Below are positions 29,316 to 62,427 of a stretch of 64,000 nt of DNA, one piece after another (positions within the stretch are counted from its first letter, which is position 1; each line of letters begins with the position of its first letter). Position numbers and translations under genes: made by a program. The notes beneath the pieces are model-generated. The model ran no database searches. It had not been told where the DNA came from and saw nothing but the letters and a program-made list of their open reading frames with translations. The stretch lies in the NCBI GenBank assembly GCA_000002435.2, contig CM018791.1; one strand, written 5' to 3'. The stretch is from Giardia intestinalis. Its lineage: Eukaryota.

Positions 29316-29341
29316 GAAATTTAGAATTTTACACTGGAAAA

Positions 29342-31655: not shown

Positions 31656-31664
31656 TTGGGCGGC

Positions 31665-31669
31665 AAAAA
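31665..31669 (-). terminator. RNA polymerase III oligo-T terminator for tRNA-Thr.
   Basis: The 3' trailer is C-TTTTT-G directly after the discriminator base. It lies 11-15 nt upstream of the ATG of the next gene. Confidence 0.55.
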
Positions 31670-31670
31670 G

Positions 31671-31744: not shown

Positions 31745-31805
31745 ACGGGCACCCCCCAACGCCTGAAATGGCTATTGTCTTTTTCCTGAGGGGACCGCAG
31801 TTTAC

Positions 31806-46800: not shown

Positions 46801-49800
46801 AAGGCTGCTCTTCTTATACGTGCAGACGTGCCTGCCCGTCTTTCATCTGAGCAGTGCACTAGAAGATATGCACCAAACTACTTTGATATCGTTGACGAGA
46901 GAGTTTGGGACGCAGGCCACATTCCGCTGCTTTTCAATGTAGATCAATACAAGGCTATCTCAAATACTCATCTTCAACTGACTGCTAAGCCAAGGGTCAG
47001 TGCTGCTGGACATCAGGAGAGTGACCTTACAGTCTCAGGAAGCTTAAGCGTAACAAGCATCCACAGCGGGCCAGATGCATCCGTTGTAACATCTGAGTAT
47101 GATAGGCATCAGGACATGTCTCCGTCAAATTCTTTGGGCAGTGAGCTTCGGGTGGCAGAGCTCCTCGCCATGGCAAAGCCCCGGGCACCTCTAGATAGCC
47201 CATTTGAACCCAATGACTTGAAGGACACACAATTATACAGCACAAACATCTTTCTAAATCAAAGTAATGCAGTAAGGACCGTGCCATGCTATATAAAAGA
47301 CCCCGGTACTAATCTAATCTCAATTCATCCTCTAATCAAGTCGCTCAGCACACAATTTACAGCTCTGGCTCCTCAATCTGCAAGCTCCACAGAGGCCCGC
47401 CCATTCTTGCTTCAGTGCGAAACTTCTTTGTCAGGAGTCGAAGAGAATTATGCGTTTACCAAACACTCCACTATTGCGGCTCCAGACCGTCCACTCTCCA
47501 ATGACCAGTTCAAGCAATACCTATCCGCAGCCCCTGAGACCTCTTTTCCCTACGAAGAGGTCAACAATGTCTATGTGCGATGGCCGAGCATCTTTACCAA
47601 GGTCAATGCTGACCTTTCTTCGTCTGGATCTGGAGTTGTTAGCATCAAGTACACTATAACAGAACTTGAGTCGTTTATTTCAGCGGCTGAAATATCTTTT
47701 GCGGCCTTCTTTGATCGTTGGAGACGCTTCTATCCTCCTCTACTTTCATTGAGTGACGCCGAAATGCTTCAGCTCTATACCTATACCTACGACAAAAACG
47801 TCTTGATGGATGAGTCATATTACGCCCTGCTTACCTCCAACAATCACCTGTACATTGCTCCCTTGGAATTTGAGTCAGAGTTGACGCAAAAGCACTTTGC
47901 ATATTGTAATAAGTTTAGGGAGAAACTATCTATGGCAGAGTTTTATATGCTGCCCAACCATATGCAGGCTATTTTGGGAAAGTTGTTTCCAATCTCACAC
48001 ATGAGTCAAAGCCCTGGCAATGCCAAAGGCATCTATAGATCTCTGACTTACTACAGTAAGCGAACATCTCTGCAGATTCTTGGCTTTGTCTACGGGATGT
48101 CAAGACGGTGCATTCTTGGTACCTTTCTTTCAGATATGTCTGTGCTGTTATTCACTCAGAAAATTGTGTGCTCTGTCGACGTAGATGATAGAATAGATCC
48201 TGTAAGCTGCTCTGAACTGTTTTACACAACGTTGATGCCAAAGTGTACGGATGATTCAGACTTCCATGCCCGCCCGACTATTCCTCTATCAACGTTTGTT
48301 GTTTTGCCGTACATAGATCAAGAGATAAAAGCATCCATCAAGTATCTCTGTGTCACCTATGCGTGTAGGTACAATCTTGTCCAGACAGATTCGTTTATAA
48401 ACTACCTTACCACGACAATCTCCATTGGGCAGGATATCAAGACCCCAGACAACTTTATTTCGGCGCTCTTTAACCCTGATCCAGCCGTGTTTACTTCATT
48501 TGCGAAGCGCTTGCTGGTTTCTATCCTCGATTTGCAGCCTATCTCCAAGCTCAAGGCATTTGTGAAAGAAGAGTTTTTATTAGCCATAGGCCATTTACCG
48601 GATTGCATTATAATTGATTTGATATTGTGTCGATACACCCTTTTAATCTCCAATTATTTATTGAGCTATTCAATCTCCTATAAGGAAGGTCAAGCTGACC
48701 CCACCAAAACCTTCATAGAAATAGTTGATGAGCTTCACTACTATTCCCGTATATTCTTCCAGCACAGGATCCCCTATCTCCGTGTTGTCATTGAGAGTCT
48801 TTTGCAAGGAGCCTTTGCGATATATAGAAATCACCATGGCCTTCTGGATCTCCTACTAAAAGTTGCCCAATCCGTAGAGCAAGCAGTCAATGATCTCAAA
48901 ATCACTCCACTTTCTGTCTTTATTCACGATCGGTGTACGCTGCTCCTGGCCACGACTCCAGACAATGACTTGGTCGGCGATATCCATGACATCTTTTTAA
49001 GGGCCTCATCGCTCCTTCACCTCCACATGATAGAGCAGGCCCACGCCCAAGATACAGCAATTCACGAGCTTGCATGGGCACTTACTGTTCTATTAGGTGA
49101 GGAGCTTGCTAAATCGACAATAGATTCCAGTGCTAGGTGCATACAAATAGACGCGTCTCTTATTCCCGATGTTACTAGCAAACTGCCGCCCGTACAGATA
49201 GATTTCCCGGACACACGTGGCCTTCTTGCTGGCCTTCTTTTCGGTTACATTGAGCGGCTCCCTACGCCCCTCGTTCTGAAGAGTGCTCCTTCTGTGGAAT
49301 ATATAACAAAACCTCCCAGGTGCTGTTCTCTGGGGGGCTCAGTTATTCCAGACCAGTTGCGCAGCTATATGACTAGCACAGATACAGGTCCGCCTGACTT
49401 TGTGCCTGATCTCTACAGAGAACCTGTCGCCAATCACCACCTATATTCGTATGATGATCCTCTGGTACAGTTGTCCACCTCGTCCTTGTGCAGGTTGTCG
49501 TCTTTTCGTCTTCTTGTTAGAGTGGCGTACGCTTTGGAACTGAAAGAGTTTAACTTAATCTGTCCACACCCAGGGCTCTACTGCTCGTGGATTGTTAGGA
49601 ATACAATAGCTGAGTACACGCTTTGCTCCGTTATCAATAAGGTGTATCGCTGGCCAGATCTATACAGCACTGTCTATACTCCCGAGAATGTCCGACTGTC
49701 CATTTACTTCTTCTCTCTCTTGACAGGGCATTACCTGATTGACAATGAGTCCGATTTATATTCTACCACAGCCGCGTTCCTGCAGAAGCAGGTGGGGGAT

Positions 49801-52800
49801 CTTTGGAGGTCTCTCATATGTGGTAATTACATCATTCTTAGGCAGGAATATATGTACAAACTTAACTCACTACTGATCGGCCTTTATACGAGTATTTCAG
49901 AATTTTCAGGCACACCTCTGACAAGAAAGATGTACCGACAGTCCAACAATATAGGGGTCTTGAACGTTGGCCAATCTAGTCGAGCCTTTATTGCTAACAA
50001 TATCAATCTCATGGTTGTTCCTTTTGAATTGCGTCGGACAGATGTCACTGAATTTTCCGCTACATGTCCAACTGTTATAGGGCCTCTTTCCCGAGTGCTT
50101 GTATTCGGCACGACACCACTAAAGGACACGCGTTATGCGGACTATATTATTGACTGCCTTTTTCCTCCTTCATCGGGCTTAGCTAGATCTAAACTTGTTG
50201 ACAGATACGCATTAGTGGATGAAGCAAGAAAGAGAAGTACCGATGTGACCAGGCCCTCACTCACTGAAGCCTTCAATCTTCTTCCAGTTTCAATATTTGA
50301 GTATTTAGATAAGGCTGATTCTGAGAAGGACCAGTGCTCACCTAGTAGCAAAGCAGCTCTTGATCCGCACACTGAGCGCAACATGGATGTTACGCTTTTT
50401 ACACTATTTGCTCTGTATAATTGCATGGCAGTGTACTGCAAGGTCAAACCAGATTGCAGCGTAATTGACGAGCTGTGCACTTCTCTTGCACAGAAGATTG
50501 TCAGAGTCCTTAGTGTCTTTCATCGGCTTATGGCAACGCCTCCAGATTCCGGACTTCTTGGTGCTGCGACAGTTTTGAGCAGACCAATCATGGAGCTGTG
50601 CATAGCCATCTCCCTGAACCTCATGCGGATGCAGTGTACTGCGGAGCATATTGAAGATGAAGCTTTATCTCTTCTAGCCCTGCTAACTCCAGCTGGAAGC
50701 ACATCGCTGAGCAAACGAATGCTTAATCGTCTGTCATCAGATGCCACCACTCTGGAAAGGGACGAAGCGTTTCTTCGCCTTCTGAAGAGACTATTCCAGA
50801 ATAGCGACGCTCATCTCACTCCATTTGGCAAGGCTGTATGTGCTCATCCACTGGCGGCATTTCTCATGCTAACAAATTACGCCGACACAAGTCTTCTCAA
50901 TGATTTAAGTCTGCCACAAGCCCATCCATGCTATTCTATAGTCGCTCTCACTTCTAATCCCTTTGTCCAAATTGGCTACGCCAGACTTTTGCGTCCATAT
51001 TCTCCGCAGATTGATCGCCTCCAACACGTTTACAGTGTAGCCGATGTTCCTATTGTTGCTCTTATCAGTAAGGTACATAGAGATATGTGCCGCTCTCCCG
51101 CTGTCAAGATACAGGACGAATCTGCGCCTCTGCCGCCAGGACAGCTTAGACATGCTTTGTTTCAGAAATACATCCTGTGCGAGGAGATCCGAGCAGATGG
51201 AAGCGTTGACGTGAAGGTTAACTATCTGTATATCTCTCTCATCTATAGAAGGTTGTTGCAGCTGGCTCAGTTAACAGGTCCACCTGAGATTGTGCTGTCT
51301 GGACAAGTAGTTCTGTTTATCTTAATGATCTATAAGCTCGCTCGGATGCTTTCTTTCAACTTTAGATACATTCTTGTAACAAATGCCTCGAATTCTAACA
51401 CCCTTTATTTGATGACGGAAATAGCCGCGTCTGTCTCGTGCGAAATTGAAGCTAAACCATACTACAGCCCGAATTTCTATATGTGTAAGCAACTCAAACA
51501 GTTGTCTGCTCCTACTCCATGCCCCAAGTACGAAGCCACTGAGCAGCTTGAGCAAATAATTCACCAACGTTATGCACAAGAGAGCACATCGAACCAAGGA
51601 GGTTGCTTGTCCAGTATTCTATCTCCTCTTGCTTCTCGTCGCGCTGTAGCTACACCAGTAATGTCTCAGCCAGAGCCTCCTCGTACGCAGCTAAGAAAAT
51701 CTGGCTTGCAGACTGTGCACCTTCACAACTCAGACCTCAGCGCTGATACGCCGTCCAGCGAGACGTCTAGTTTTACTGACCAGTCCCAGACTGTTGCACA
51801 TCAGCTTCCTTTTGATGCAGCCGGGGGGACGCGTAGGTTTAAACAGTTAGTTGGTACACGGTTGATGAGCTCGCAGCCAGGAGGCTTTGCTTTTTCCTCG
51901 AAAACTGATAACAGCATTGGAGCAGGCGCAGAAAGAAAGCGTAGCTTCCGAAGTAGCTCTGCTTCGGTGATATCCGGCTTCAAGTCGTCAGCAAGAAGTT
52001 TGTCTCGCGGTATAACAAACCAAAGCGTTGATAGGTCGTCGCACTCCATGAAGCGTAAAAGGTCTGCAAGCACAGGGCATCTTTCGTCTTTTGCTAAAGA
52101 AGTCGAGGGAGATACTAGTTTATTATTGAAGACCAAAGATGCAGGGCTGACGTCTTGGTCTGTCCAAAGTGTGTGTCTTGAGTTTCCACGTCGATTCTTT
52201 ACGCGGTTTGCGCCAAAGATCCTTGAGGCCACTAATCAGAACGCAATGGGTAGCGTTAGCTTCTATGACACGCTGACTGGGGAACGGCTTTCTGACATTA
52301 GCGAAGGAAATCATAGAAGGAGCTTGGAACTAACTTTAGAAGATTCTATTGCTAATCTGTATACTCACGATCCGCTTGCAGATTCACAGTCAGCTATTGA
52401 AAAAGAGCAGAATAATACGTTTTCTCAACATGGCAGCCACATGCTAGTTGAGCAATCCAATGGCGCCTTCAATCTGAGTCTTCTCAGAATAGAGTCAAGC
52501 GCTAGAAGAACCTTTGCAAGCCGGATTTTAACGAGCCAAAATGCTGAGACAGATGACTGTCCGCAACTACTTACTTTCACAAATAGTGCCGCCAGGGCCT
52601 ATGATCCTATCTCCCCGGAAGAAGCTACGGTGTTGAACTTTATAGCAGGCCGCCAAGGTCCTCTCTTTATGCCCACTAAGTCTGCAGGTATCAGCAGAGT
52701 TCGTTATATAGCTGTCGGAAGTATCTCGTCAGCGGAGACCATTATGGGCTGGAAGGACTTTACTCCTCAAGTGACGGATGGGCCATATAACAGAATAGCA

Positions 52801-55800
52801 TACCCTGGCAGCAGTGCTTTTTCATTAGATATAGATACTCTCATTACTTGTCTGCCAATTGTTATTTATACTCGTGAAAAGGCAGTCTGGCCGATTTCCA
52901 TACAGGCTCTAACGATCCCTGATGCACTCAACTCTCTAGTGTCTCTTCGACTCTTTCTCACGGATTCCTTACATAATCGGATTTATGGAGAGCAGAATAT
53001 AGAACGGGGACTTTCGAGAGCTCAGCAAGAAGTCTCTCGTGCCGTCACACGACTAGCAAACTCACACCACGTACCCATAATATTACCTCCTCAACCAGGC
53101 ACATTTATCGCTGCACGTGGTGGTGCTCTCCAAGCAGGCAATGAGTCACAAACAAATGAAGGCGCGCATAAAGCAGGCAGTTTAAGTATGAACGTCTATG
53201 GCGGCTCTGTTGTTACCTCGACGGCTGCAGCATCTCATCTCTTTCATGCGCTGACATGCTATGATACTACGAAGAACACATTCCCGTATCTATTTGAGGT
53301 CTACAATGAAACTGTTCTTCAGCACGTATCAGATTGCCTTTGGGCCTATCTCATCCTTCCTCTTCTTCACGAGATATTCATTGTTAACAATCGCAAAAAG
53401 CATTCTAATGATTCCAGCGATATGAGACTGTTTCAAACGCGACACTATGAGTCTTTCGTCGATTACCTTCGGCTGGAATTAGCGGAAATAATCACGCATT
53501 ACACAAATTCTCTCTCTAAGTACCATGTTCTACATGAGAACAAAAGCACATTTATTCTTGTCAATCTCAACACAATTTTTTGCCTGCATCAATCCGAACT
53601 TTACGAACTGTCTAAGATTACACCAAGCACCACTAAACACGAGGCAACCCAGATGTTGCGGGCAGCCCGCTCAGCAATCTCGTCAAGTGACGAGCGGAGA
53701 GCAGACATACTGAAGAATGTTGTGTTCTCGGTTGCATGCTCTGTTTTCAGATATATGTGCACCAAGGCTGCAGTTTCTCCAAAGACATTCGACAAGCTTA
53801 TCAATTACATGCAAATCATTCCTAGCTACAGCATAAACGATCCACTGGAGAAGGTTCTTGCAGAAGCCAATTTAGCCACGAACTACTCTGATTTGCCGGA
53901 AAAATCTGTAACAAAACTCACTTATAATCCCATTAACGATGCATTTAATATGCGTGTAATGGCTCATGTCAACAGAGCGTTGCGCGAACTTTTCCTTTTA
54001 TATCGAGTGGATCCCCCTGCGTCCACAATTAAACAAGATGAAGCCAAGCAGCTGTCTGGCGCAGCTTCCAAAGAGAAAGAGACACGATTTTCTCCATCAG
54101 ATGATTCCCTAGATGACATCCACAAGTTTGAGGACACAGACCTTGAGGTGCACACCAAGGACAGGCGTCCTTCCTATAAGGTTGACTATGAATTAAAGTA
54201 TGAAGTTTCAAACTTCTTTTATGGAGGGCTTTATGGACCCTATCCGTTGATCAATTCTCGCTTCTCACCAGAGCTTCTTTCTTTTGTCCCGTACTGCTTT
54301 CAGGACACGCTGCGGGATGGACATGTCACTAGCTTACCCAAGGAAGCACTTCCTCATGCGCATTTACTAAACAGGATGAAGCGCGCTAAAGGGAGCAGCA
54401 TCTTTCTTGAGAGCTATAAGGCTCCGATTCCTCAATTTCTTAGTTGTGCCTCTGTACTACGTAGTAGAGTGTTGAGCTTCGTGCTGAGCACCACTCAAGC
54501 TTCTTCCGATCCTGTTTTGTTATGTGCTGGAGACTACGAGGCCGATTTGCTTTATCACTGTGGGATAACATCCATCCACCCCGATGAAAACATCTATGGG
54601 TCAACGTCTCATAGTTATCTGATTATGTCCATCGTCGATGAAGACATTCTTTACTCTATTGTCGACTTGACCGAGCACATTTGCAGTCATCACAGTTATG
54701 TCTCATTAATAGGACTTATCATTGTCGTTTCTCAGCAGTTTGTGCAAACAGCTAGGGATTTGCAGTACCTCTACTCGCTCGCACAAACCCTGCCGTCCAT
54801 GATTCATCCCAGAGTCCTCTTGCTTGTTTTTCTCCCGCATAATTTCCTGGAAGCTACACCCTGTCTCCCTTATCGCTACGAAGCGCTGTATGTCCATCCG
54901 CCAACAAGTACCCAGTTGCTTACTGTTGCATCTTACGATCTAATCTATTCAATCGCAGAATCTGACATCGCTTCACGAGACAGTAGGCTTCCACTGAAAT
55001 TCCTGGCAACCTTTGAACCACGTCTCAAGTACGCCAGTTTGCTCACAAAGCAATTACAGGCTGTATTCAGAGACTCCCTTCTCACGCAAAAGGTCCTTGC
55101 GATGGCCTCGAAGCTGATGCTAGATGGGACATTCTTGAATGCACATTCGTTAAGGGTGCCCTCGTGCAGCAATCTTTTGGGGGATATCTTTCTTTTGTCT
55201 GTTAACATAGTCCTGGTGATGCAGAACTATGGTGAAATAGAAGATGCTTCGTTCAAGGAGGCACTACTAGCTGTTATTTATCGATATGTCGTTTCGCCGT
55301 CCCCACGTGACGTTCTGCCGTACTACGATTTTGATGCAGTACCACACACCCTCACTACCATGCCTGCAGATTTTGTCGAGTACGCTGTCAGACTCCTACA
55401 ACCCGGACGGATGTTGCTGGAGTTCTTGCTCCTGGGTGCAGAGAGCTTGGAAAGCGAGTATATCTATACCGCAGTTCTTTCGTCTCTGCGAAGCACTCAG
55501 GTTGCAATTGTAACAGAGGCACAGACCAATGAGTTAGTGGCATCAAACACTCACCTTCTAAGGGTCGGAAAAAGGCCACTTGTCCCTGTATATGCTTCAG
55601 CATCAGCTACATCTGACCTACCAAATTATGGTCAAGCTCTTGTACGTGGTGGCGACCTGCTTCTCTGTAGTGAGGCATATAACGCATCATCCTTCGCTGT
55701 TCACCTGGAGCACTTTGTCTCAACCCGCTGCGTCCGCATGATCCGGCTTTATGCCACGGACAGCGGATCATATATGAAAAGCCTCAAATATGGCCTTCAC

Positions 55801-58800
55801 CTGTTTATGCTGCGCCAAAACTTGCACACGTCCCAACAGGCTGTGATAGTAGATTGCATAAACGATAAGTCTGCAATGGAGATAATTGAGCGAGCAATTT
55901 ACCTCTGTGTGTACACCAAGTCAGTGGTGGCAGATAAGGACAAGCCAATCAAGCATATTGTGCTGCTACTTTCGAGCCAGCAAGCAACTCCTATGCATAC
56001 CTCTTCTGGGCTCGGAGAGAGCGCATCCTGTATTGAGGTCCTAAACACATCTGCCCGTGGAGAAGCTGCTTCTAATGATAGGGATCTCAGGAACCTAATT
56101 TTAGCACTAGCTACGCCGTATGCTGAAATATTCAGCGCCTTGCCTCAAAGGCTCCGAACAGACTTTATACAACGAACTGGTCTTCATAGTTCGCGAGACA
56201 TCCATAATCTGCTATTGTCTGTATTCGTCCTAGTTGTAACGACCCCGGCAACCCTGGACTTTTCTCTCTCTCAAACCAATGTCGTCCCCTTTGGTCTTGA
56301 AGATTATCCCAAAGCCTTAGGGATCAACACACGATTGTCCCTCCAGCTTTCCTTTAATTTGGTAGACAAGCCTACTGAGAAGTTACAGATTAGACAGAGG
56401 GCGTCTGAAGTCTCAGAGTACACTGAGGCTCGCCTTGGGAACAACGGACATGCAGGCTACTTTGCATTCTTATTAGCAGGGTCACATGATAATATAGCGC
56501 TTTGTGCAAGCATCCTAGCCACGGAATTCCCGGTAATGATTCAGTGGGCACAGACCCGTCTGGGTGCCGTCTTTGCAGGGCGAAGCCACGGGTTCCTGCT
56601 GAAGGATCATCTACCAGTTATCAAGGTCACAAAGGGCTCACTGGAGGAGTACCTGTCATCACTTATGTCCACCAATGTTATTGACATAGCCACGTTCTTC
56701 TATGAGGCCCTTAGGCTGACCGGCTCTCCTCAGCCCACAGCATACAGTATCGTGATATTTACGCATTTCGTTCTTCAGGAATTTAAATACAGGCTTGCAC
56801 GCTTCGTTGACTCACTTGATCAAATATGCTGTAATCTGCAAACGGCCCAAAATCTTAGCTCAGCCTCTACTAAAGAACTTAACAGCGTAAAGAAGCAGTC
56901 CGACATTGAAACACAGCAAGTCGAGGAGATTGCAAAAGAGCTGAAGCAAGCAGACACAGACATCACACAAATGATCAAGAGGCTGGTGTATAATCAGCGG
57001 CTCTTTAAAAACCGCCAGCGCAAAATAGCCACCTTGACTGCTGAAAGTAACAGATTGCAGAAGCTTATCAGTCAGGCCCTTCCTAGACTGAAGACTGCAG
57101 TTAATGCGGTGAATAAGCTGACAAAAGATGTTGTGGGCGGAATAAAGGTCCTGAAGCAGCCGCCCTCAAGCCTCCGAAGAATAATTGACTGCCTAGCTAT
57201 ATTGATGCATGCGCCCCTATCCAAAATATCTCACGACATACTCCAGGTGACTCTTCCCCTAGTCTCACCTGACTTGATGGACGACGAGCTCGCCCTGCAG
57301 CGCATATACGATCGTGAATCGAACAAAGCATCGCGTCCGCTGCTCTTCTTTATCGGCCAGGAAGTTATTAGTCAGGTTCGCCGAAGAGCTCCTGTCCCAG
57401 ACGACTCAGAGCTGGATGATATGCAGGTAGCAATCAACGCAGATATCGCGATGATGGAAAACCTTAGATTGGTTAGCTACAGCGACTATACCAAGCAGGT
57501 TGAAGATGAGTGCTGCAGAAAGGCTTCGGACGCGCCTCAAGACGCTTCCTCTCAGCTCAGAGCTGCCAAGGACGCCTTTGTGGTAAAAGACCTCGGTAAG
57601 CTGCTCTCCGACGTTCATGGAGCTTCTCTACTTGGGAGCACATTTCATGGGTCGGCTTTTAAGAAGCAGATGTCTCTTGAACTCAGCTTTGCGGAGCGGC
57701 CTGATATTTATATAGGCAGGAAGATTACCGATCCTTATCTAACGGCAAACGATCTTCGCATGAACATCCCAAAGATTCTATCGAATGTTGACATGCTCCG
57801 GAGTGCGTCACACATCTTCAGCTTCTCTGAGCTAGGTAACGATATTTTGCATGTCCTACACCCGTTTAACTACGAAGAAATATACAATTACGTACTTGCC
57901 CACGGAGCATTTGTTAGCGACCTTACCAGGCCTATTGAACTAGAGACCAAGGGGAGACGGTCAGAGAAGAAATCAACTTACAACCTATATACCACATACC
58001 GATATTCGTGCATGGTAAGGGACCAGTGTGTCATCAGCTCTGCTCCTGTTCTTGTGAACTTCCACGATGGAACAACACTAGAAGAGAGCAGTGCATCATC
58101 CAATGCCATAAACGTGACATTCTATGCGCCCAAGGATTCGTTTGATGAGCTACAATACTTCCTGCAAGCAACAGCCTTTTCTGAGCGGATTTGCAGGTTT
58201 GATCCGACGGTTCTAACAGACGAACAGATAGAGCTGCTGGAACCGTACCTGGCACAGCCTGATTTTAATTACTATTCTGCAGGGAAGATTTCTCAACTTT
58301 GCCAAAGCATGATCGAGTGGCTCAATGCAGTCGTTTCTTACTACAAGTTGGCGTGTGCGCTCCACCCTGTTTATCAGCGCAACGAGTTTGTGCGTTCATT
58401 CATCAACAACTTTACTGCAGAATCAGACAATCTCGCTGTAATGATCCATCAAGATGAGGAAGCAATTGTCGCGATGCGCAACAGAAAAAAAGAGCTTGTC
58501 AAGGAGCAAGATAGGCTAGGGGCTCGCGCCAAAGATACCCTAACTCACGAGCGATATTCGCAACATATCAAATCAGAAATGACGGAAAAGTATGACACAT
58601 GGCTGACAAACTTTCAAACAATGTGCGGTGAACTGAGCAGTCTACTGATCGATGCTGTTGTGTACTCCACTTTTGTCTGTGGGGGGTTCACGGTATGCAG
58701 TTCGTTCAAGCGTGCACTGCAGGAGTCTCGAGCGTCTCAATTTTGCAAGGCCACAGTTCCTTTATCCGACACCGAAAAGCATCTTTTCTCTCAATACGGA

Positions 58801-61800
58801 AATACGATTGTATATGGGGATACTCAGCATGGAACAGAAACCTCTATGACACCGCACGCTCACAAGAAGTCGACCATCAACTATCTGCTAAACATAAGCA
58901 ATGCAGCGCAGTCATTCGTAAGTCATTACATAGACAGCCAAAGACATACAAAAGCACGGCCATGCGATCCGGAGCAGTTTTCGCTAGATGTCGCAGATGC
59001 TTCAGACGATGATGCCTTAGACAAGTTCAGTGAGCAGGTGGCAGAGAGTGACTCCGCTGCAGTCTTGGCTCAGGGGCTTCACACTGACTATGCTATATCC
59101 CTGACGACGGATGTGCTTGCTATCGCTCACAGTACCGGAATCTCTCTACCGAAGACGTATCATATTTTCGTCGAAGGGGATATGTTTACCTCCTTTGGCC
59201 TAACATATGGATTTGTAACACAAATAAGGCCTCTTACAGACATCTTTCTCAAGCAAGACTTCTATCCTCGAGTTGATGTCACAGATAGCTCCGACGGCTA
59301 TCTGCACACAGGTCTTCTTGGGCTTATTTTGCACTATCCCCTTGCATTCTATGCCATGGGAATAACAAAAGAAGAAATTCTGCAGCTATCGGCACTCTTC
59401 ACATGCCCATTGGTCCCCCTGGTTTGGGATCCTCGTGGACACTTTGAAGAATTCCTTATCAACCTCAAGGAATATAGCCACATATGTAGCCAGAAAATAC
59501 GAAAACTGGTGAACTCCAGCTACCTCTTGTCTCCTGACCAGCTTCGTCAGATTTACCACCGGCTAGAGGAACCAGAACTAGTAGTGTACGATTCCTTACC
59601 TGAATTCCTTGATTCCTTGTTATCAGACTGTCCGTCAAATAGGGCCATAGGACACAGCTACTCCAACCTCACGGTTGCATACATTACGCCAGATGATTTG
59701 TTAGGGAAGACTCAACACAGCAATATGACACTATCATCAGTTCTTTCACAGCTTGTCATGACATCGGCTATACGGGGTGTACGCCACCGAGTGATCTTAG
59801 TCCTCAGAGGTCATAGTCTGCATGCTATCCGCGACCAAGCACTTGATTCCTTTATCAGTGCAGACGCCAGTGGTATTTTCGCACACTACGAATTTTCTTA
59901 TCAACTGCACTACCAACTTGCTCGCTCAGTGGGACTCTCGTGTAAGGCCCCCTGCCTTTACCGGAACATCTTAACCGATGCTAGTGCAGATCTTCTAGAA
60001 GCATTTCTGGATTATGTATTCTGCTTTACTCTATACATGCGAGCTGATAGCACAGTCAATAAAGAGGATTACATCGCGGTGCTTGTTTCTGCCAAGCAGA
60101 ACGTTCTACTGGCCGGACAAAAAGTGGAGTCCATTCTTGACAACGTGGAAGTCGTCATCCGGAACTTTGCTAACATAGAACATACCTATAACATAATTCA
60201 GCAGGTCCTCTGCGGGCATTCATTCACCGTTAAGCTTTCTGATGGAGGGGACATCGGTGTTGACAACCTAACCGAAAGGTCTCTGTCAGAGAGTGGTCTG
60301 GAGGTGACGCAGATAAGCGTTCCGCTCTCAAATCGCTATCAGGAGACTACAGTGACACGAGAAATGCTTTCAAAGTTGGCATTTCTCTATTCATTATTCT
60401 ACGACAAATCTACAACGGACTTGATCAATTACCAGCTATACAAAACAGTCTCTCTACATATTATGCAGGACCTGCTAGCGCCCCTGAACCTACGCACATA
60501 CTTCCTCGTAATCTCGCTCTACGGTGCCCACTACCAATACAAAAGTGTGCACCCGGGTATTATCAATCTTCTCATCGTATTGCTCTGTGAGCTGGACAAA
60601 CGTACAGACATATTTTTTGACCCTTTACAATCATCCAGCGGTACAGCCCACCTCGAGCTAAGATCCTCTGGGCCAAGTATGTCAACGTCAGCAACTGAGA
60701 GCGTTATAACTAGCAGTGGAGAGTCATCGGACAGTGAAGTCTTGGCTGATAAGTTGTACTTCGTCACAGGCAGGCTCCTCACAATGTTATCAAGCTTGCC
60801 GTTACTTGACGCACTAAGACACGAATTCAAGCTTACTGGCACCAACATTAACTTTTGGAAGTGGTACATCACCTACTTTGTGGGCAAATGCAGCAGTGCA
60901 CAGGCATCTGAGGGCGCATCTAAGGGGTATCTTGATCGTGACAAAATCCTCTATCCAAGCAGCTATCAAGACGTGGTTGCAAAGATCGCTGTTAGCTTTG
61001 GTGGTGGTGCCGTTCTAAGGGAATCGCTTGCAGACTATATAGATATTATAACCTTCTGCTTATTTAGTATCGGCGTCAAAAATTACGAAGAGATCTGCAA
61101 TCAGAGAGTGTCTAATAATAATAATAACAACAAGAGTCAGTTCAGTCCTCGCCTAAATTCGACACAGGGGGTCTTCATGAATTGGCTGATACACTCTTTG
61201 GACATTTTGTCTAGGCAACTCACGGACAATGGCTGTGTAAAGAACTTCCTCTATAAACGGAAGTCGCCAATTGGTCTTTTCCTCAACGACTCGTATGGAG
61301 TGGGGATAGAGGCGACTATCTATAGAGAGATTAACTACTTCTTCAAGCGCAACAACATGCTGAGACTGACACAGAAGCGGCATGCTTCAAGTGGCTCTCA
61401 TGTTACTGAGCAGGCATACATTAGTATCGACGAAACAAATCAGGATCCTCACCAGTGCAACATTTCCACATTTGTGCTTCCATCTTCATTGCACATAGGC
61501 AGGACCTTCTCTCTTGAGACGCTAGTCCATATATGGAAGTGTCTATCGATCTATGAATACCGGACCTCTGTAGACCAGTCTGTCTTTGATTGCTTTGTGC
61601 AGGCCAACGAAGCTACAAGGAGGACATATTCCTTGACAGAAATCACACTTCTTCCTCGCAGCTGGCCAGCTGCCGTGCGAAACGAAATTATGAGCCGCAT
61701 CAGTGACTATTCCACAGGTAAGTGCATGACAGGGAAGAGGAGTGCCGGGGAGTCATCTGCAAACAGCGAGAGTATCTGCTACAGAAGCAACGGAAACAAT

Positions 61801-62373
61801 CTAATTCTCATTGACTATGATGCAAAGGAGCTCGAGAATATGCACGCTTCCTTGCATTTGCCTTATACACATGCACGGTCTCTGCGACGGCAACCCTTGC
61901 TGCCCAGTACTCTCGCAGAAATAGTGTTTAACAGCGCACAGCTCATCAAGAGCAACATTTACGAAGGCGTCACTCAGAGCAATACGCTTAGGCGCTTGGT
62001 TGAGAGTCAAACATTCGCGCGAAATGTGGACACGATTCTGGTATGCGTCATGCTGATAGCATTTCGTGTTAGCAAGTTCCGGAGACTTTGGCATCTTGGC
62101 AGAGAAATACAGGTGTGCATGGAAAGGATGGGGTCTAGCCTTATCCTAGCGCTCAACAGTAATGCCATCAAACCAGTGGCAGAGAGCACAACAATCATGT
62201 GGGCTATAGCCTCTATGTATCTGCAGCAAACTTACCCAGAGGCTTGTCTCACCGTCATGCATACTTGCGTAAAAGTCACAATAAAAGTCACAATAGCAGA
62301 TGAGGCATTCGAGGTCCCAAAACAGGAGTTCACAGCGCTCGAGAGTCTGATTTTTCTTCTCCGGTGCATGTAA
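37888..62373 (+). CDS. Giant protein (about 8,162 aa) with a degenerate dynein-heavy-chain-like C-terminal motor region and a very long N-terminal extension.
   Basis: A single 24.5 kb ORF. The track start at 37864 is a TTG and the first ATG is at 37888. Four dynein motifs appear in the order seen in dynein heavy chains. (1) Stalk-entry motif ALPRLKTAVNAVNKLTKDVVGGIKVLKQPPSSLRRIIDCLAILM, compared with dynein ALPALEEA..L..L.KKDI.EIKS...PP..V..VMEAVCIL. (2) Post-MTBD motif DFNYYSAGKISQLCQSMIEWLNAVVSYYKLACALHPV, compared with DF.PE.V.KVS.AA.GLC.WV.AM..Y.KVAK.V.PK. (3) About 125 aa later, LLIDAVVYSTFVCGGF, compared with GD.LLAAAF.SYLGPF. (4) AAA5-like PLVWDPRGHFEEFLINL, compared with WPLMIDPQGQANKWIKN. 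Upstream of the stalk, NGHAGYFAFLLAGSHDNIALCASILA resembles the AAA4 block GxALLVGVGGSGKQSLTRLAA, but the P-loop is lost. No intact GxxxxGK[ST] is found by eye. Confidence 0.8.
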   Translation: MIEGIIAYLQGLVDTDEDKAYLVNYFSANEFQSLLSGATTHTVIKLTNFPGIDLFLQNIKGYQLLLSSYKGDARYLLLLFHSGKVTHFSEFTLSTVHLLLDQLPLSTFQYLDTIARIRFLQQLASSYNVALNIFPSYLTPLFIETFHSTVLLFLRYYPCDPKSISGKAEALQDIGISQLTVEGLEQSMADIRNLVAGTSEAKASSPEPLQVSLGTHREVVLLLSVYLSTALASFHALASEIAYTFSTYSHLPTLTDTLLYLHQMMSRVAYALSFLESPLVLELLQFVQSALEGARLSNPKQRSKTLTDLVTAENNIILHLQSLKTDFISVKALLHRNMRLLDAIVPFISSIHDILCPFTVQLSCELHMIWPKRDTVVSTTYFYELLHQLLNLDYKTILHTTETMYTIANSLDLRRVDGNPLIHDTVEGVQKRRPHDLSLSPQFCLSIIKLFANDMDLCLTNLILLFCNEIIDGSSSKDDMNTLVSALSSLASLTPSNGHRFSASTTLDTDLDLGDQSKEPAESSSGVSRTVEVLQLVLAITKIEHNSMRNFVFMTAEPDLFQSYMQPPLSNNGSHHDGPDSTDSTDSILYGLQMSHVSLPNQSFSASGSASTEAVLGHSQSPLYSTLAGQLAPQGADALHRSDCLAACRAKEPQQLTADEIFDMKVADILEAPIYRLCITEFAPRSIASLYFLIRIAHAAYFSYSRLQLIFVQLYRPASGHKETTFMQAVQPGSLHLEVTSTAAYKANSAVAADICLYTIALRNIVEASGPIEIIKLALLNYHEFEALHPKEGRLFQTIMNSDTSFIHTVISYIVQKYLVDTSPTVGLCALFVDSQAQQLQFCKEMELARSKVLSLDSSLCREKPLQRIPSSCLDKSVEVPNGTHFALLMEQILEMCRAQLIETFKINYTLRLQLSATSALSFVKKVSSYIMFMFKGRARELIQSFYDGVIKVAAETIRQTEAYFHTVLCKFETNTFDEILDNPRRITFLPKWPLFIRGILEAVAIINRFITATDLSMHSEILTNVALRDDKLRYNMNKLALLHSLSSDIGLKALKAWLKDSLEHCHQLKCFVLRLSEQCAPSMLSLYMSDTLFNSLAKALLSRVTVTYEVNAPQHALQFALELELLGRFGILRITEPFMCRFLLKEDFLSLIDVIYTELQNPEDPLETLLVGASFVGESVNTPEHERLSVELLSQSFSGPTDSISSSASAGSELRRPLLSKSEPGLDHNLAALHASSQEQARPSNILFAKVFISNYASIVSRVKVLVSLVHEILRTRRRYSNILFANPFLLLFAGSHYILIEKELELFAAKFDWLSTEFQVTAERVYKAVHKLDSFVIALQFIMKGVLRPIFRELRKPAAIQRSGNKQCSLAELETGLMKYALQRNLFVDASVNRLIDAINRCQSIHDEYYPSGKLALHYYSLFVYILGPLRQSQVLDRAGITDSEARTMFSNAQSSLQEVYKQAVVHPTEVLTICRHVQIMLHEELYAVVKTQISQALLYHIEKLSSSLLHVIINPQTGPVILLTLNRTASTFTTSPDYTLLPIIIYTIISSLKVILSSAIHSACSRVRANLSLPGMAGAYKSVESNPLIMRYEPESKNPFDICNIDDDPLVRAVKLEHMSPAPHLRSKSVTPLSRSRELREQLLTSPCPRSLSQSIARRSAMFEELAILSAIQHETDIGDNSISLLQTYTKVDSVIVEQNIDYVELLGVSRDTYELSQALRIYGTFHELLIFVKKLIRSFDAASSSFSVAQKTCQQQLLAGATDATQGNYLEAYHEMIRAASLSNRTIGTLMEAHPLTTFYAKNPVGSVVKIKALHNFQDTGYLFSRLSLLENDLHLTLQAITLLDVLSIELIKLSDAAAGVLDSRDAIQMIKHDLDTKRLSEAHSFRLKLMLFVETLYDVFKRLSPELVLKIEQDVSFDYLSRVLHGIKTFEILNNIVLDFVQVLEHLLEFIPERAYYHERLELLFPLDDMFIGNINLLSVNITKVTNDVRTFIKEKYPKFTESIITQIKYSYGDCQLLRNYLTEASPCSNVFKSFGELWGQRYLVQLKPYLLSNITEFTWGSTNLYRQMSDYNPDVPSCDESTSLFNSSGSECEDNCDIEGNGSRQTLIHGSGNTVDAATSSILPSTKFSSRTTFLDEDSTKLLYKRGRHELSLRKAPQRFRGVSPAQRDPEESYSDTFKHDFEPLDAATDVQPYNFLSINIRCMLADIHNVHTKALSAELIHQFRHALFSCIKPLGEETYYIVSNVFKEALCLPQFTEICVTDTDIASILPSSENPVQGLSRSSLSLLLRNEITHALADRSLGSALGGSSDATASSRPTKPLWVRLVSFHTFPKDDTRFLSSIDYDKYVYCIQLNDSDAIPTNESIQKFLETYVVLRSSPNKKANRIRLNNVTTISESLLLMNSSGESHSSDSNDTDDVVDQEPYTQLYKLAICNDGSACASSEKDAHHKETILQEHGLHTIPTVFGSYSLRGFIIVVWEITQVNTREYRHPPFLSFTMAKKLKERLFESILQSNILILQLNEKLETCTKIATAVKVHGCLEFLSKIPADQYRRIRADISCTKGLLVLFTRFINLILILYSCSWKILTAEVDFSLTTPEGLMAIGEGVSPAYEQLREIGSSIPGKLSNQIASMSALMTAIYSLWTDYSVLKRAVHVLQTTKSRIEGISTYDMTPTVEQDSVFLNDFYIQILTNELLHSNPSLIRNSGERGKFTAGGVEGLDCQLQEKIDGTFRGKVMIGKFLLTYLQLFFSYAMTISLMPFRHEISHRYYEVAGELLSLCCLYRDFFIPPLSTMLSSRVKIDLFTELCTTCLEPADSLEALPLGCYVDTLFTHENIEYIDRYTSEAKETTAVLLDYHALLTEHKAVLSIATSNYWCFFNGFENSVLTPISCLILLREEKVQHLCNLILKVKHRLQSIVTRFNRFRSLLCTSPEYRSLLDVYTRTNLLLKLLSLMKKSGHQIESVLKAALLIRADVPARLSSEQCTRRYAPNYFDIVDERVWDAGHIPLLFNVDQYKAISNTHLQLTAKPRVSAAGHQESDLTVSGSLSVTSIHSGPDASVVTSEYDRHQDMSPSNSLGSELRVAELLAMAKPRAPLDSPFEPNDLKDTQLYSTNIFLNQSNAVRTVPCYIKDPGTNLISIHPLIKSLSTQFTALAPQSASSTEARPFLLQCETSLSGVEENYAFTKHSTIAAPDRPLSNDQFKQYLSAAPETSFPYEEVNNVYVRWPSIFTKVNADLSSSGSGVVSIKYTITELESFISAAEISFAAFFDRWRRFYPPLLSLSDAEMLQLYTYTYDKNVLMDESYYALLTSNNHLYIAPLEFESELTQKHFAYCNKFREKLSMAEFYMLPNHMQAILGKLFPISHMSQSPGNAKGIYRSLTYYSKRTSLQILGFVYGMSRRCILGTFLSDMSVLLFTQKIVCSVDVDDRIDPVSCSELFYTTLMPKCTDDSDFHARPTIPLSTFVVLPYIDQEIKASIKYLCVTYACRYNLVQTDSFINYLTTTISIGQDIKTPDNFISALFNPDPAVFTSFAKRLLVSILDLQPISKLKAFVKEEFLLAIGHLPDCIIIDLILCRYTLLISNYLLSYSISYKEGQADPTKTFIEIVDELHYYSRIFFQHRIPYLRVVIESLLQGAFAIYRNHHGLLDLLLKVAQSVEQAVNDLKITPLSVFIHDRCTLLLATTPDNDLVGDIHDIFLRASSLLHLHMIEQAHAQDTAIHELAWALTVLLGEELAKSTIDSSARCIQIDASLIPDVTSKLPPVQIDFPDTRGLLAGLLFGYIERLPTPLVLKSAPSVEYITKPPRCCSLGGSVIPDQLRSYMTSTDTGPPDFVPDLYREPVANHHLYSYDDPLVQLSTSSLCRLSSFRLLVRVAYALELKEFNLICPHPGLYCSWIVRNTIAEYTLCSVINKVYRWPDLYSTVYTPENVRLSIYFFSLLTGHYLIDNESDLYSTTAAFLQKQVGDLWRSLICGNYIILRQEYMYKLNSLLIGLYTSISEFSGTPLTRKMYRQSNNIGVLNVGQSSRAFIANNINLMVVPFELRRTDVTEFSATCPTVIGPLSRVLVFGTTPLKDTRYADYIIDCLFPPSSGLARSKLVDRYALVDEARKRSTDVTRPSLTEAFNLLPVSIFEYLDKADSEKDQCSPSSKAALDPHTERNMDVTLFTLFALYNCMAVYCKVKPDCSVIDELCTSLAQKIVRVLSVFHRLMATPPDSGLLGAATVLSRPIMELCIAISLNLMRMQCTAEHIEDEALSLLALLTPAGSTSLSKRMLNRLSSDATTLERDEAFLRLLKRLFQNSDAHLTPFGKAVCAHPLAAFLMLTNYADTSLLNDLSLPQAHPCYSIVALTSNPFVQIGYARLLRPYSPQIDRLQHVYSVADVPIVALISKVHRDMCRSPAVKIQDESAPLPPGQLRHALFQKYILCEEIRADGSVDVKVNYLYISLIYRRLLQLAQLTGPPEIVLSGQVVLFILMIYKLARMLSFNFRYILVTNASNSNTLYLMTEIAASVSCEIEAKPYYSPNFYMCKQLKQLSAPTPCPKYEATEQLEQIIHQRYAQESTSNQGGCLSSILSPLASRRAVATPVMSQPEPPRTQLRKSGLQTVHLHNSDLSADTPSSETSSFTDQSQTVAHQLPFDAAGGTRRFKQLVGTRLMSSQPGGFAFSSKTDNSIGAGAERKRSFRSSSASVISGFKSSARSLSRGITNQSVDRSSHSMKRKRSASTGHLSSFAKEVEGDTSLLLKTKDAGLTSWSVQSVCLEFPRRFFTRFAPKILEATNQNAMGSVSFYDTLTGERLSDISEGNHRRSLELTLEDSIANLYTHDPLADSQSAIEKEQNNTFSQHGSHMLVEQSNGAFNLSLLRIESSARRTFASRILTSQNAETDDCPQLLTFTNSAARAYDPISPEEATVLNFIAGRQGPLFMPTKSAGISRVRYIAVGSISSAETIMGWKDFTPQVTDGPYNRIAYPGSSAFSLDIDTLITCLPIVIYTREKAVWPISIQALTIPDALNSLVSLRLFLTDSLHNRIYGEQNIERGLSRAQQEVSRAVTRLANSHHVPIILPPQPGTFIAARGGALQAGNESQTNEGAHKAGSLSMNVYGGSVVTSTAAASHLFHALTCYDTTKNTFPYLFEVYNETVLQHVSDCLWAYLILPLLHEIFIVNNRKKHSNDSSDMRLFQTRHYESFVDYLRLELAEIITHYTNSLSKYHVLHENKSTFILVNLNTIFCLHQSELYELSKITPSTTKHEATQMLRAARSAISSSDERRADILKNVVFSVACSVFRYMCTKAAVSPKTFDKLINYMQIIPSYSINDPLEKVLAEANLATNYSDLPEKSVTKLTYNPINDAFNMRVMAHVNRALRELFLLYRVDPPASTIKQDEAKQLSGAASKEKETRFSPSDDSLDDIHKFEDTDLEVHTKDRRPSYKVDYELKYEVSNFFYGGLYGPYPLINSRFSPELLSFVPYCFQDTLRDGHVTSLPKEALPHAHLLNRMKRAKGSSIFLESYKAPIPQFLSCASVLRSRVLSFVLSTTQASSDPVLLCAGDYEADLLYHCGITSIHPDENIYGSTSHSYLIMSIVDEDILYSIVDLTEHICSHHSYVSLIGLIIVVSQQFVQTARDLQYLYSLAQTLPSMIHPRVLLLVFLPHNFLEATPCLPYRYEALYVHPPTSTQLLTVASYDLIYSIAESDIASRDSRLPLKFLATFEPRLKYASLLTKQLQAVFRDSLLTQKVLAMASKLMLDGTFLNAHSLRVPSCSNLLGDIFLLSVNIVLVMQNYGEIEDASFKEALLAVIYRYVVSPSPRDVLPYYDFDAVPHTLTTMPADFVEYAVRLLQPGRMLLEFLLLGAESLESEYIYTAVLSSLRSTQVAIVTEAQTNELVASNTHLLRVGKRPLVPVYASASATSDLPNYGQALVRGGDLLLCSEAYNASSFAVHLEHFVSTRCVRMIRLYATDSGSYMKSLKYGLHLFMLRQNLHTSQQAVIVDCINDKSAMEIIERAIYLCVYTKSVVADKDKPIKHIVLLLSSQQATPMHTSSGLGESASCIEVLNTSARGEAASNDRDLRNLILALATPYAEIFSALPQRLRTDFIQRTGLHSSRDIHNLLLSVFVLVVTTPATLDFSLSQTNVVPFGLEDYPKALGINTRLSLQLSFNLVDKPTEKLQIRQRASEVSEYTEARLGNNGHAGYFAFLLAGSHDNIALCASILATEFPVMIQWAQTRLGAVFAGRSHGFLLKDHLPVIKVTKGSLEEYLSSLMSTNVIDIATFFYEALRLTGSPQPTAYSIVIFTHFVLQEFKYRLARFVDSLDQICCNLQTAQNLSSASTKELNSVKKQSDIETQQVEEIAKELKQADTDITQMIKRLVYNQRLFKNRQRKIATLTAESNRLQKLISQALPRLKTAVNAVNKLTKDVVGGIKVLKQPPSSLRRIIDCLAILMHAPLSKISHDILQVTLPLVSPDLMDDELALQRIYDRESNKASRPLLFFIGQEVISQVRRRAPVPDDSELDDMQVAINADIAMMENLRLVSYSDYTKQVEDECCRKASDAPQDASSQLRAAKDAFVVKDLGKLLSDVHGASLLGSTFHGSAFKKQMSLELSFAERPDIYIGRKITDPYLTANDLRMNIPKILSNVDMLRSASHIFSFSELGNDILHVLHPFNYEEIYNYVLAHGAFVSDLTRPIELETKGRRSEKKSTYNLYTTYRYSCMVRDQCVISSAPVLVNFHDGTTLEESSASSNAINVTFYAPKDSFDELQYFLQATAFSERICRFDPTVLTDEQIELLEPYLAQPDFNYYSAGKISQLCQSMIEWLNAVVSYYKLACALHPVYQRNEFVRSFINNFTAESDNLAVMIHQDEEAIVAMRNRKKELVKEQDRLGARAKDTLTHERYSQHIKSEMTEKYDTWLTNFQTMCGELSSLLIDAVVYSTFVCGGFTVCSSFKRALQESRASQFCKATVPLSDTEKHLFSQYGNTIVYGDTQHGTETSMTPHAHKKSTINYLLNISNAAQSFVSHYIDSQRHTKARPCDPEQFSLDVADASDDDALDKFSEQVAESDSAAVLAQGLHTDYAISLTTDVLAIAHSTGISLPKTYHIFVEGDMFTSFGLTYGFVTQIRPLTDIFLKQDFYPRVDVTDSSDGYLHTGLLGLILHYPLAFYAMGITKEEILQLSALFTCPLVPLVWDPRGHFEEFLINLKEYSHICSQKIRKLVNSSYLLSPDQLRQIYHRLEEPELVVYDSLPEFLDSLLSDCPSNRAIGHSYSNLTVAYITPDDLLGKTQHSNMTLSSVLSQLVMTSAIRGVRHRVILVLRGHSLHAIRDQALDSFISADASGIFAHYEFSYQLHYQLARSVGLSCKAPCLYRNILTDASADLLEAFLDYVFCFTLYMRADSTVNKEDYIAVLVSAKQNVLLAGQKVESILDNVEVVIRNFANIEHTYNIIQQVLCGHSFTVKLSDGGDIGVDNLTERSLSESGLEVTQISVPLSNRYQETTVTREMLSKLAFLYSLFYDKSTTDLINYQLYKTVSLHIMQDLLAPLNLRTYFLVISLYGAHYQYKSVHPGIINLLIVLLCELDKRTDIFFDPLQSSSGTAHLELRSSGPSMSTSATESVITSSGESSDSEVLADKLYFVTGRLLTMLSSLPLLDALRHEFKLTGTNINFWKWYITYFVGKCSSAQASEGASKGYLDRDKILYPSSYQDVVAKIAVSFGGGAVLRESLADYIDIITFCLFSIGVKNYEEICNQRVSNNNNNNKSQFSPRLNSTQGVFMNWLIHSLDILSRQLTDNGCVKNFLYKRKSPIGLFLNDSYGVGIEATIYREINYFFKRNNMLRLTQKRHASSGSHVTEQAYISIDETNQDPHQCNISTFVLPSSLHIGRTFSLETLVHIWKCLSIYEYRTSVDQSVFDCFVQANEATRRTYSLTEITLLPRSWPAAVRNEIMSRISDYSTGKCMTGKRSAGESSANSESICYRSNGNNLILIDYDAKELENMHASLHLPYTHARSLRRQPLLPSTLAEIVFNSAQLIKSNIYEGVTQSNTLRRLVESQTFARNVDTILVCVMLIAFRVSKFRRLWHLGREIQVCMERMGSSLILALNSNAIKPVAESTTIMWAIASMYLQQTYPEACLTVMHTCVKVTIKVTIADEAFEVPKQEFTALESLIFLLRCM
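61114..61131 (+). repeat. (AAT)4-AAC-AAC microsatellite encoding a poly-Asn run (NNNNNN) inside the giant gene.
   Basis: aataataataataacaac, seen directly in the sequence. Confidence 0.7.
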
Positions 62374-62427
62374 AGTAAAACAAAAACAATTTTACTGTAG
62401 TTTGAACATTCTTAATTTTAATTCTCG

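Follow-up and report, generated by a model that had tools for sequence, protein, structure and literature searches.

A dynein stalk in the largest protein of Giardia intestinalis, probably a much-altered descendant of a dynein heavy chain

Degenerate dyneins are already known, and ghost dyneins such as DNHD1 are an established class: giant proteins of dynein descent with a degenerate motor, encoded by intact and conserved genes. DNHD1 itself is of roughly normal length and still gives recognisable profile matches to the AAA modules and the linker of dyneins. Aberrant dynein heavy chains were reportedly discussed by Gibbons in 2012. They were taken up by Kollmar (2016; PMC5100056), who also recorded orphan diplomonad dyneins, one of them with a tail that could not be aligned to any class. 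Here we describe a giant gene in a stretch of 64,000 nucleotides (nt) of Giardia intestinalis DNA (assembly GCA_000002435.2, contig CM018791.1; "the window" refers to this whole stretch), which encodes a protein of 8,161 amino acids (aa). A search of the literature for the gene, or for a Giardia protein of this length, surfaced a table of proteome statistics alone, in which the longest G. intestinalis protein has 8,161 aa; the protein is not described by Wickstead and Gull, and it may or may not be the diplomonad dynein with the unalignable tail. On balance we favor the view that this giant protein goes back to a dynein heavy chain from which it has diverged greatly, and that it is a ghost dynein acting as an ATP-independent microtubule tether. 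It bears the marks of that class, namely dynein descent, lost P-loops, and an intact gene under selection, and the comparison with DNHD1 made in the original prediction, which was drawn from the DNA letters and a list of open reading frames (ORFs), is apt. It is an extreme and previously uncharacterised example, differing from DNHD1 in that every module except the stalk has fallen below detection, in a length about 1.8 times normal, and in an insertion of about 294 aa within the microtubule-binding domain (MTBD). Because its nearest relatives are all fornicate proteins, an origin independent of that of metazoan DNHD1 is likely.

The stalk is the only part of the giant protein that sequence comparison demonstrably assigns to dynein (Table 1). 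When residues 4001-8161 were compared with the PDB by phmmer, 45 sequences were returned at E <= 1, essentially all of them chains of dynein heavy chains. The top match, to DNAH1 (E = 8.2e-11), consists of two collinear stretches: residues 6297-6441 correspond to DNAH1 2824-2961, covering stalk coiled-coil 1 (CC1) and MTBD helix H1, and residues 6763-6980 to DNAH1 2992-3208, covering the MTBD, stalk coiled-coil 2 (CC2), and the entry to AAA5 (independent E = 3.9e-7, bias 0.0). A stalk profile built from 18 canonical chains gave 98.2 % (E = 3.6e-14) for the H3-H6 part and 94.4 % (E = 8.6e-8) for CC1 in hhalign. An exhaustive HMMER search with residues 6261-7460 retrieved 124 proteins at E <= 0.001 among 1.84 billion representatives, and, leaving aside the four short G. 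intestinalis fragments P0078-P0081, each of them had its highest-scoring stretch either in CC1/H1 or in H3-H6/CC2. One might object that coiled-coil composition has been taken for homology. The Pfam MT model does match over positions 154-224 alone, at 15-18.3 bits against a gathering score of 24, and several unrelated coiled-coil families match CC1 weakly in 600-aa windows. Against that objection, the strongest and unbiased match is to the globular MTBD, not to a coiled coil, and it is joined by the high hhalign values and by the presence of the invariant dynein columns (P, PP, F, Y, F, K, W, and Y), which the giant protein and the dyneins have in common.

The architecture of the stalk is likewise that of a dynein: an antiparallel coiled coil bearing an MTBD, in which helix H2 is replaced or interrupted by the insertion. 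CC1 and CC2 have their canonical lengths, both hinge prolines are kept, the PP columns are invariant in the stalk alignment, and the distance from the DF motif to the end of CC2 is 129 aa, exactly as in all four canonical heavy chains compared. AlphaFold2 (AF2), run from an alignment of six sequences (the giant protein, its Chilomastix homologue, and four dyneins), gave confident CC1, H1, H3-H6, and CC2, with a predicted local distance difference test (pLDDT) of about 77-96 over most of these elements. CC1 was modeled as a single long helix (block-mean pLDDT 82-95 over most of its length), H1 as a helix at model residues 138-150, H3-H6 at block means of 77-84, and CC2 at about 84-96 across most of the helix. 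The top PDB matches of this model in Foldseek were dynein stalk/MTBD structures, a result that is partly circular since dyneins were included in the alignment. DNAH1 (PDB 9fqr_X1 and 8j07_g6; stalk crystal structure 8i3j) remains the best match among solved structures and has a stalk of equal length, but it differs in that its AAA ring is complete, in that P-loops, linker, and tail are all present, and in that H1 is joined to H3 by a few tens of residues. The original prediction had quoted five motif strings, all of which are present (residues 6397-6440, 6792-6828, 6919-6934, 7177-7193, and 6198-6204), and had read four of them as dynein motifs in canonical order. That order holds, and the first three motifs are far beyond chance in both phmmer and hhalign. 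Given this true stalk and MTBD, we consider it very likely, as the prediction had proposed, that the protein is dynein-derived.

There is a real and intact gene behind this protein. The predicted open frame, at 37864-62373 on the plus strand, is uninterrupted, runs for about 24.5 kb without an internal stop, and yields 8,161 aa from its first ATG. An orthologue of 8,167 aa was called on Logan contig L006, from another assemblage, likewise upstream of AdhE, and is 72.5 % identical to the giant protein in its last 3,316 aa. Across the final 3,309 codons of the alignment the ratio of nonsynonymous to synonymous divergence (dN/dS) is 0.09, indicating strong purifying selection in residues 4827-8161, and dS is about 1.9, so that synonymous sites are saturated between the assemblages. 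A pseudogene or a chance ORF is excluded because the frame has stayed open across so long a divergence and under such constraint. Taken together with the homology of the stalk, this leaves the artefact explanation in any of its forms (chance ORF, pseudogene, or misread coiled-coil composition) with a negligible share of our belief. The protein collection searched has no entry with the exact sequence, probably owing to a length limit, and a word-indexed protein search with residues 5501-8161 returned four canonical dyneins, with neither a self match nor the orthologue. Just four database entries cover the gene, the fragments already mentioned, which are partly frameshifted, 69-285 aa long, and 91-99 % identical.

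Identity between the two assemblages, compared over residues 4827-8161 only, is distributed very unevenly (Table 1). Since H1 and H3-H6 are the most conserved segments of that region and the parts flanking the stalk stand at 64-70 %, the MTBD is its functional focus.

Table 1. Features of the giant gene, with their positions in the window and, for residues 4827-8161, the identity between assemblages
Feature	Residues	Window position	Strand	Basis or remark	Identity between assemblages (%)
Complete ORF, largest protein of G. intestinalis WB		37888..62373	+	8,161 codons and TAA stop	
N-terminal 4,500 aa, no recognisable dynein tail	1-4500	37888..51387	+	no detectable homology	
Pre-stalk region (in a dynein: linker, AAA1-AAA4)	4501-6290	51388..56757	+	none detectable	70.3
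"AAA4-like" block, FAFLLAGSHDNIA ... GFLLKD ... LEEYLSSL	6190-6263	56455..56676	+	possible remnant at best	77
Stalk coiled-coil 1 (CC1)	6291-6423	56758..57156	+	phmmer, hhalign, AF2	82.7
PP hinge and MTBD helix H1, QPPSSLRRIIDCLAILM	6424-6442	57157..57213	+	alignments, AF2	100 (H1)
Insertion of ~294 aa in MTBD, between H1 and H3	6443-6736	57214..58095	+	alignments	82.3
MTBD helices H3-H6, including DFNYYSAGKISQLCQSMIEWLNAVVSYYKLACALHP	6737-6828	58096..58371	+	phmmer, hhalign, Pfam MT; most conserved long segment	96.7
Stalk coiled-coil 2 (CC2)	6829-6918	58372..58641	+	alignments, spacing, AF2	84.4
CC2 exit and AAA5 entry motif, LLIDAVVYSTFVCGGF		58642..58689	+	alignments; fits canonical GDVxxAxAFxxYxGxF	93.8
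Poorly conserved 241-aa spacer after CC2		58690..59412	+	~173 aa more than canonical CC2-to-AAA5-core	63.9
Candidate remnant of AAA5 large-domain core, PLVWDPRGHFEEFL ... PELVVYDSLPEFLDSLL	7176-7248	59413..59631	+	hhalign	83.6 (64-69 around it)
C-terminal 913 aa (in a dynein: rest of AAA5, AAA6, C-terminal domain)		59632..62370	+	nothing detectable	68.6
AGTAAA directly after the TAA stop		62374..62379	+	read from sequence	

The original prediction found no intact Walker A, and we confirm that the pattern G....GK[ST] occurs nowhere in the 8,161 aa; the sole GK[STQ], in LLGKTQ at residue 7273, has neither the upstream glycine nor any other P-loop context. Taken alone this absence says little, because only about 0.07 matches would be expected by chance in a protein of this length. 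It is telling for a dynein heavy chain, which normally has three or four such loops: most of the canonical chains retrieved carry two to four, and nearly all, including the fornicate Carpediemonas chain P0002, keep GPAGTGKT at AAA1. Could the giant protein nevertheless be a functional, very divergent motor whose nucleotide sites have drifted past recognition by motif or profile? Stalk length and both hinge prolines, on which communication between ring and MTBD depends in dyneins, are exactly conserved, and the strong purifying selection on residues 4827-8161 would suit a working enzyme. We nonetheless hold this to be most improbable, since there is no P-loop where canonical dyneins so regularly keep one, no AAA family is matched even at E <= 10 in 600-aa windows, and two of the relatives described below (P0088 and P0097) are also without any P-loop. 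That the giant protein is catalytically dead appears likely, nearly as much so as its dynein descent.

Beyond the stalk, we detect no dynein motor module. Pfam searches with the whole protein and with 600-aa windows at E <= 10 found no dynein family except the MT stalk; AAA_5, AAA_6, AAA_7, and AAA_8 gave zero matches, and there was none to DHC_N1 or DHC_N2, nor to AAA_9, Dynein_heavy, AAA_lid_11, or Dynein_C. In hhalign, with profiles of 18 sequences and of 19-67 sequences, the linker, AAA1-4, AAA6, and the C-terminal domain were all silent: tail and linker blocks gave E values of about 0.5-0.6, and across the pre-stalk region the best values for the linker and AAA1-4 profiles were 0.2-0.7, at scattered positions. 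Enriching the AAA4, AAA5, and AAA6 profiles with divergent relatives brought no gain, and the C-terminal 913 aa remained silent both in Pfam and with the AAA6 and C-terminal profiles, divergent relatives in the AAA6 profile included. At the other end, residues 1-4500, in which the original prediction could recognise no motif, indeed have no detectable relatives, with no phmmer match in the PDB at E <= 1 and nothing credible in Pfam; no internal repeats were found in the giant protein. The prediction's wider claim, that the ORF ends in a degenerate dynein motor, fails as a statement about what can be detected, and the C-terminal dynein profile matches by which it proposed to be judged are missing for every module except the stalk. 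We therefore file the protein as a dynein derivative and not as a motor, because it has the stalk of a dynein and lacks the catalytic and modular features.

Two blocks flanking the stalk had been read as remnants of AAA4 and AAA5, and they fare differently. In the first, the sequence GSHDNIA was taken for a decayed AAA4 P-loop. An AAA4 profile compared with residues 5850-6300 (451 aa) aligns its Walker-B-like part alone, at a nonsignificant E = 0.43; the block lies about 93 aa before CC1, too near the stalk when the canonical distance is about 222; and GSHDNIA precedes the PP by 226 aa, compared with 357 for the canonical AAA4 Walker A. The AAA4 assignment is probably wrong. The second block lies where AAA5 is expected and aligns to positions 60-123 of the AAA5 profile. 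Its E value is 0.1 against the whole protein, tied with a spurious match elsewhere, 0.032 in the post-stalk region, and 0.012 in a 300-aa window, and its score of 26.1 compares with 16.9 +/- 2.8 in local shuffles, of which 2 of 150 reached it (p ~0.013). It is also the sole post-stalk similarity to the Chilomastix homologue. An AAA5 core remnant is thus plausible, if weakly supported and unproven. The prediction that motifs 2 to 4 are canonically spaced holds for motifs 2 and 3 but not for motifs 3 and 4: from the end of CC2 to PLxxDP there are 256 aa, as against 82-85 in four canonical chains, because about 173 extra residues intervene. From the AAA5 motif to the end of the protein the distance is 985 aa, compared with 1029-1088 in canonical chains. 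Whether an AAA-like ring fold persists under so much divergence we regard as an evenly balanced question.

The closest relatives of the giant protein belong to the Fornicata. The core of its MTBD is best matched by P0084, a UniParc fragment of 124 aa (UPI00079E11CF; 70.7 bits), by Chilomastix cuspidata EukProt 2905.p1 (P0086, 2,709 aa; 60.5 bits), and by Aduncisulcus paluster GKT34396.1 (P0088, 3,963 aa, partial, annotated "hypothetical protein"; 54.0 bits), whereas canonical chains score at most 48.9 bits. The match to Chilomastix is reciprocal, and H3-H6 of the Aduncisulcus protein rank next after the Giardia/Chilomastix group (54-58 bits). Two derived features, the residues PPS and F[DN]P, are common to these proteins, to Carpediemonas KAG9393405.1 (P0097, a protein of 4,562 aa with the annotation "Dynein heavy chain N-terminal region 1"), and to the giant protein; in Carpediemonas the second takes the form F/I-N/D-P. 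F[DN]P reflects a change from K to P, and P is found there in 6 % of canonical sequences, some of them ordinary dyneins. A Walker A motif is absent from all three of the long relatives (P0086, P0088, and P0097).

These relatives differ in how much of a dynein they retain. The Carpediemonas protein, in which AAA1-4 are undetectable as in the giant protein, has by contrast a canonical length and a strong tail (DHC_N1, E = 6e-68); its linker can be recognised (E = 2.8e-15), as can the start of AAA6 (E = 1.6e-5), and it lacks a large MTBD insertion. In the Aduncisulcus protein, profiles still recover AAA4 (E = 4.4e-4) and AAA6 (E = 1e-6); its only Pfam match is to MT, and it has the same DSF, FDP, and PYL..PDF signature as the giant protein, but its stalk is much nearer to the canonical one (106 bits to a Carpediemonas dynein) and contains no insertion. 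The Chilomastix protein has zero Pfam matches, and in it, as in the giant protein, the stalk alone is detectable, together with the same "PLVP..DP" block after the stalk. It too has an extra segment between H1 and H3, of about 70-90 aa compared with about 294, and it is much more compact, with about 780 aa after the stalk compared with about 1,240; outside the MTBD it could not be aligned to the giant protein, and, being transcript-derived, it is possibly truncated at its N terminus. Carpediemonas, Aduncisulcus, Chilomastix, and Giardia in this way form a graded series in the decay of tail, linker, and AAA modules. The observation that two further fornicates, Aduncisulcus and Carpediemonas, encode dynein relatives of heavy-chain size without Walker A stands in its own right, and P-loop-less dynein derivatives seem to be either recurrent or ancestral in Fornicata.

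The series bears directly on where the giant protein came from. A dynein hairpin might have been captured by an unrelated giant scaffold, so that in this lineage the hairpin was never surrounded by a ring, or the ring has been wholly replaced. Such a capture would explain why Pfam, phmmer, and profile-profile comparison find no significant likeness to dynein outside residues ~6297-6935, why the nearest homologue, in Chilomastix, is likewise reduced to the stalk, why the room before CC1 is too small for a complete AAA4, and why the first 4,500 aa bear no relation to a dynein tail. It is harder to reconcile with the Aduncisulcus and Carpediemonas proteins, which have a similarly derived MTBD and no P-loops and yet keep remnants of AAA4, AAA6, linker, or tail in canonical order, so that gradual decay is a simpler account of the series than the insertion of a hairpin. 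The CC2 exit motif, itself part of AAA5, is retained; the AAA5 block is rightly placed and is the sole post-stalk block in common with Chilomastix; and the post-stalk length is about that of a canonical AAA5, AAA6, and C-terminal domain. We consider capture unlikely and, chiefly because of the graded series, favor descent from a complete heavy chain. From the Aduncisulcus and Carpediemonas proteins we infer that a ring once surrounded the stalk of the giant protein, and the regions flanking that stalk are probably descendants of the AAA ring.

The MTBD is enlarged, as had been predicted, and the added segment is its most distinctive feature. PP and DF are 366-368 aa apart, whereas four canonical heavy chains have 61-81 aa there. 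Among the 1.84 billion representatives searched with HMMER, only G. intestinalis fragments matched the insertion; Pfam gave no match to it, and AF2 assigns it a pLDDT below 50. Between assemblages it contains no indels, and its constraint is about that of the coiled coils. It occupies the lattice-facing side of the MTBD, at a site where some canonical chains in the same alignment bear a few extra residues. The region between H2 and H3 is also the site of the "flap" of some axonemal dyneins. We suspect that the insertion modifies or extends the contact with the microtubule.

What might such a protein do? We suggest that a ghost dynein confined to the branch of fornicates to which Giardia and Chilomastix belong has lost ATP hydrolysis and stepping, and that its stalk and MTBD would form a strut of fixed, canonical length by which a very large body (some 6,300 aa on the N-terminal side of the stalk and some 1,240 aa on the C-terminal side) is docked onto microtubules. 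It would probably bind microtubules, and could work, within one of the microtubule arrays of Giardia, as a static tether or spacer. To our knowledge, neither Chilomastix nor Aduncisulcus has a ventral disc; as homologues are encoded in Chilomastix and possibly in Aduncisulcus, a role confined to the disc seems unlikely. A more far-reaching version of this idea, which we hold only tentatively and think doubtful, is that the hairpin of stalk and MTBD has become a stand-alone, ATP-independent docking device carried by a novel body of more than 6,000 aa, with the whole AAA+ ring remodeled into non-AAA folds, and that the proteins of Giardia, Chilomastix, and one further relative constitute a fornicate-specific class of structural microtubule-associated proteins that build or cross-link lineage-specific arrays. 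The insertion would then be a new conserved domain at the lattice-facing position between H1 and H3, and of the known motors turned into scaffolds the giant protein would be the most extreme.

Several observations weigh against a microtubule tether descended from a complete heavy chain. (i) At five positions of the MTBD, half or more of the canonical chains have K or R; the giant protein keeps only two of these, and at the start of H3 it has F and D/E where W and K/R are usual, so that canonical contacts with the lattice may be altered. Net charge of the MTBD was considered as a sign of lost microtubule binding and proved uninformative, the value of -7 falling inside the canonical range of -10 to +6. 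(ii) Orthology with the Aduncisulcus and Carpediemonas proteins rests on bit-score ranking and two shared residues and is not proven. A neighbor-joining tree of the stalk was discarded, as its distances were saturated and it supported no grouping. When the giant protein, the Chilomastix and Aduncisulcus proteins, the degenerate Carpediemonas protein, and a canonical Carpediemonas chain were compared pairwise before and after the stalk with phmmer and hhalign, the giant protein was linked to nothing but the weak AAA5 block. (iii) The ring is not demonstrable: AAA1-4, AAA6, and the C-terminal domain are silent even with profiles of 25-67 sequences, and an AF2 single-sequence model of residues 6901-8100 reached a pLDDT of only 36 and was unusable. 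Were GSHDNIA the AAA4 P-loop, about 120-130 aa of that module would be missing. (iv) An unconventional nucleotide site could in principle exist even where Walker A is missing.

The genes around the giant ORF identify the source of the DNA. Neighboring ORFs are identical to the G. intestinalis WB (assemblage A) proteins XP_001710217 (Get3/ASNA1) and XP_001710215 (proteasome Rpt3), with further exact matches to XP_001710230 (CAF1) and GL50803_113722. AdhE begins at 62428, leaving 54 nt between the stop of the giant gene and the start codon of the next, and the AGTAAA at the head of this interval fits the consensus of the Giardia polyadenylation signal. Synteny with AdhE did not lead to a more distant Giardia orthologue: on contig L005 (Logan SRR30592944, 11,860 bp), which belongs to a Giardia-like organism and encodes an AdhE with 74 % identity to the G. 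intestinalis protein, the gene upstream of AdhE is unrelated and present as a C-terminal fragment of 309 aa, and local synteny with the window is not kept.

Other features of the window may be recorded briefly. A second giant ORF, at 14790-26399 (+) and 11 kb upstream, encodes the 3,869-aa "hypothetical protein" GL50803_113722, which has no Pfam match and resembles neither the giant protein nor dyneins. At 26385-29366 (-) lies a coiled-coil protein of ambiguous start (993 aa from a GTG, or 976 aa in WB as XP_001710222), without a Pfam match and annotated "Chromosome segregation protein SMC, partial" in isolate DH. A GC-rich patch with positive GC skew at 28000-32000 (55.5 %, compared with about 47 % elsewhere) contains overlapping long ORFs at 29342-31666 (-), 30668-31738 (+), and 30756-31706 (-), and the 774-aa minus-strand ORF among them has no Pfam match. 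Finally, 568-4584 (+) encodes a protein of 1,338 aa with a very long array of ankyrin repeats followed by a C3HC4 RING finger (Pfam Ank_2, E = 1.5e-91; zf-C3HC4_3, E = 7e-13), which we take to resemble the "protein 21.1" ankyrin family of Giardia, with an E3-ligase-like end.

The cytoskeleton of Giardia, with its ventral disc, median body, funis, and eight axonemes with long cytoplasmic portions, contains many lineage-specific proteins of obscure ancestry. It now appears that in the largest protein of the organism the most conserved element of the region compared is a dynein stalk and MTBD, and docking on microtubules offers a concrete and testable handle on an 8,161-aa "hypothetical protein." Since degenerate dyneins are known already, the interest of this one is moderate and lies in how unusually extreme it is. 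In the series from Carpediemonas through Aduncisulcus and Chilomastix to Giardia, tail, linker, and AAA modules are lost step by step and the geometry of the stalk stays fixed; the exact preservation of the distance from DF to the end of CC2 suggests that what selection retains is a microtubule-binding strut and not an ATPase. The series may thus be regarded as a natural experiment on which parts of a dynein work without its engine.

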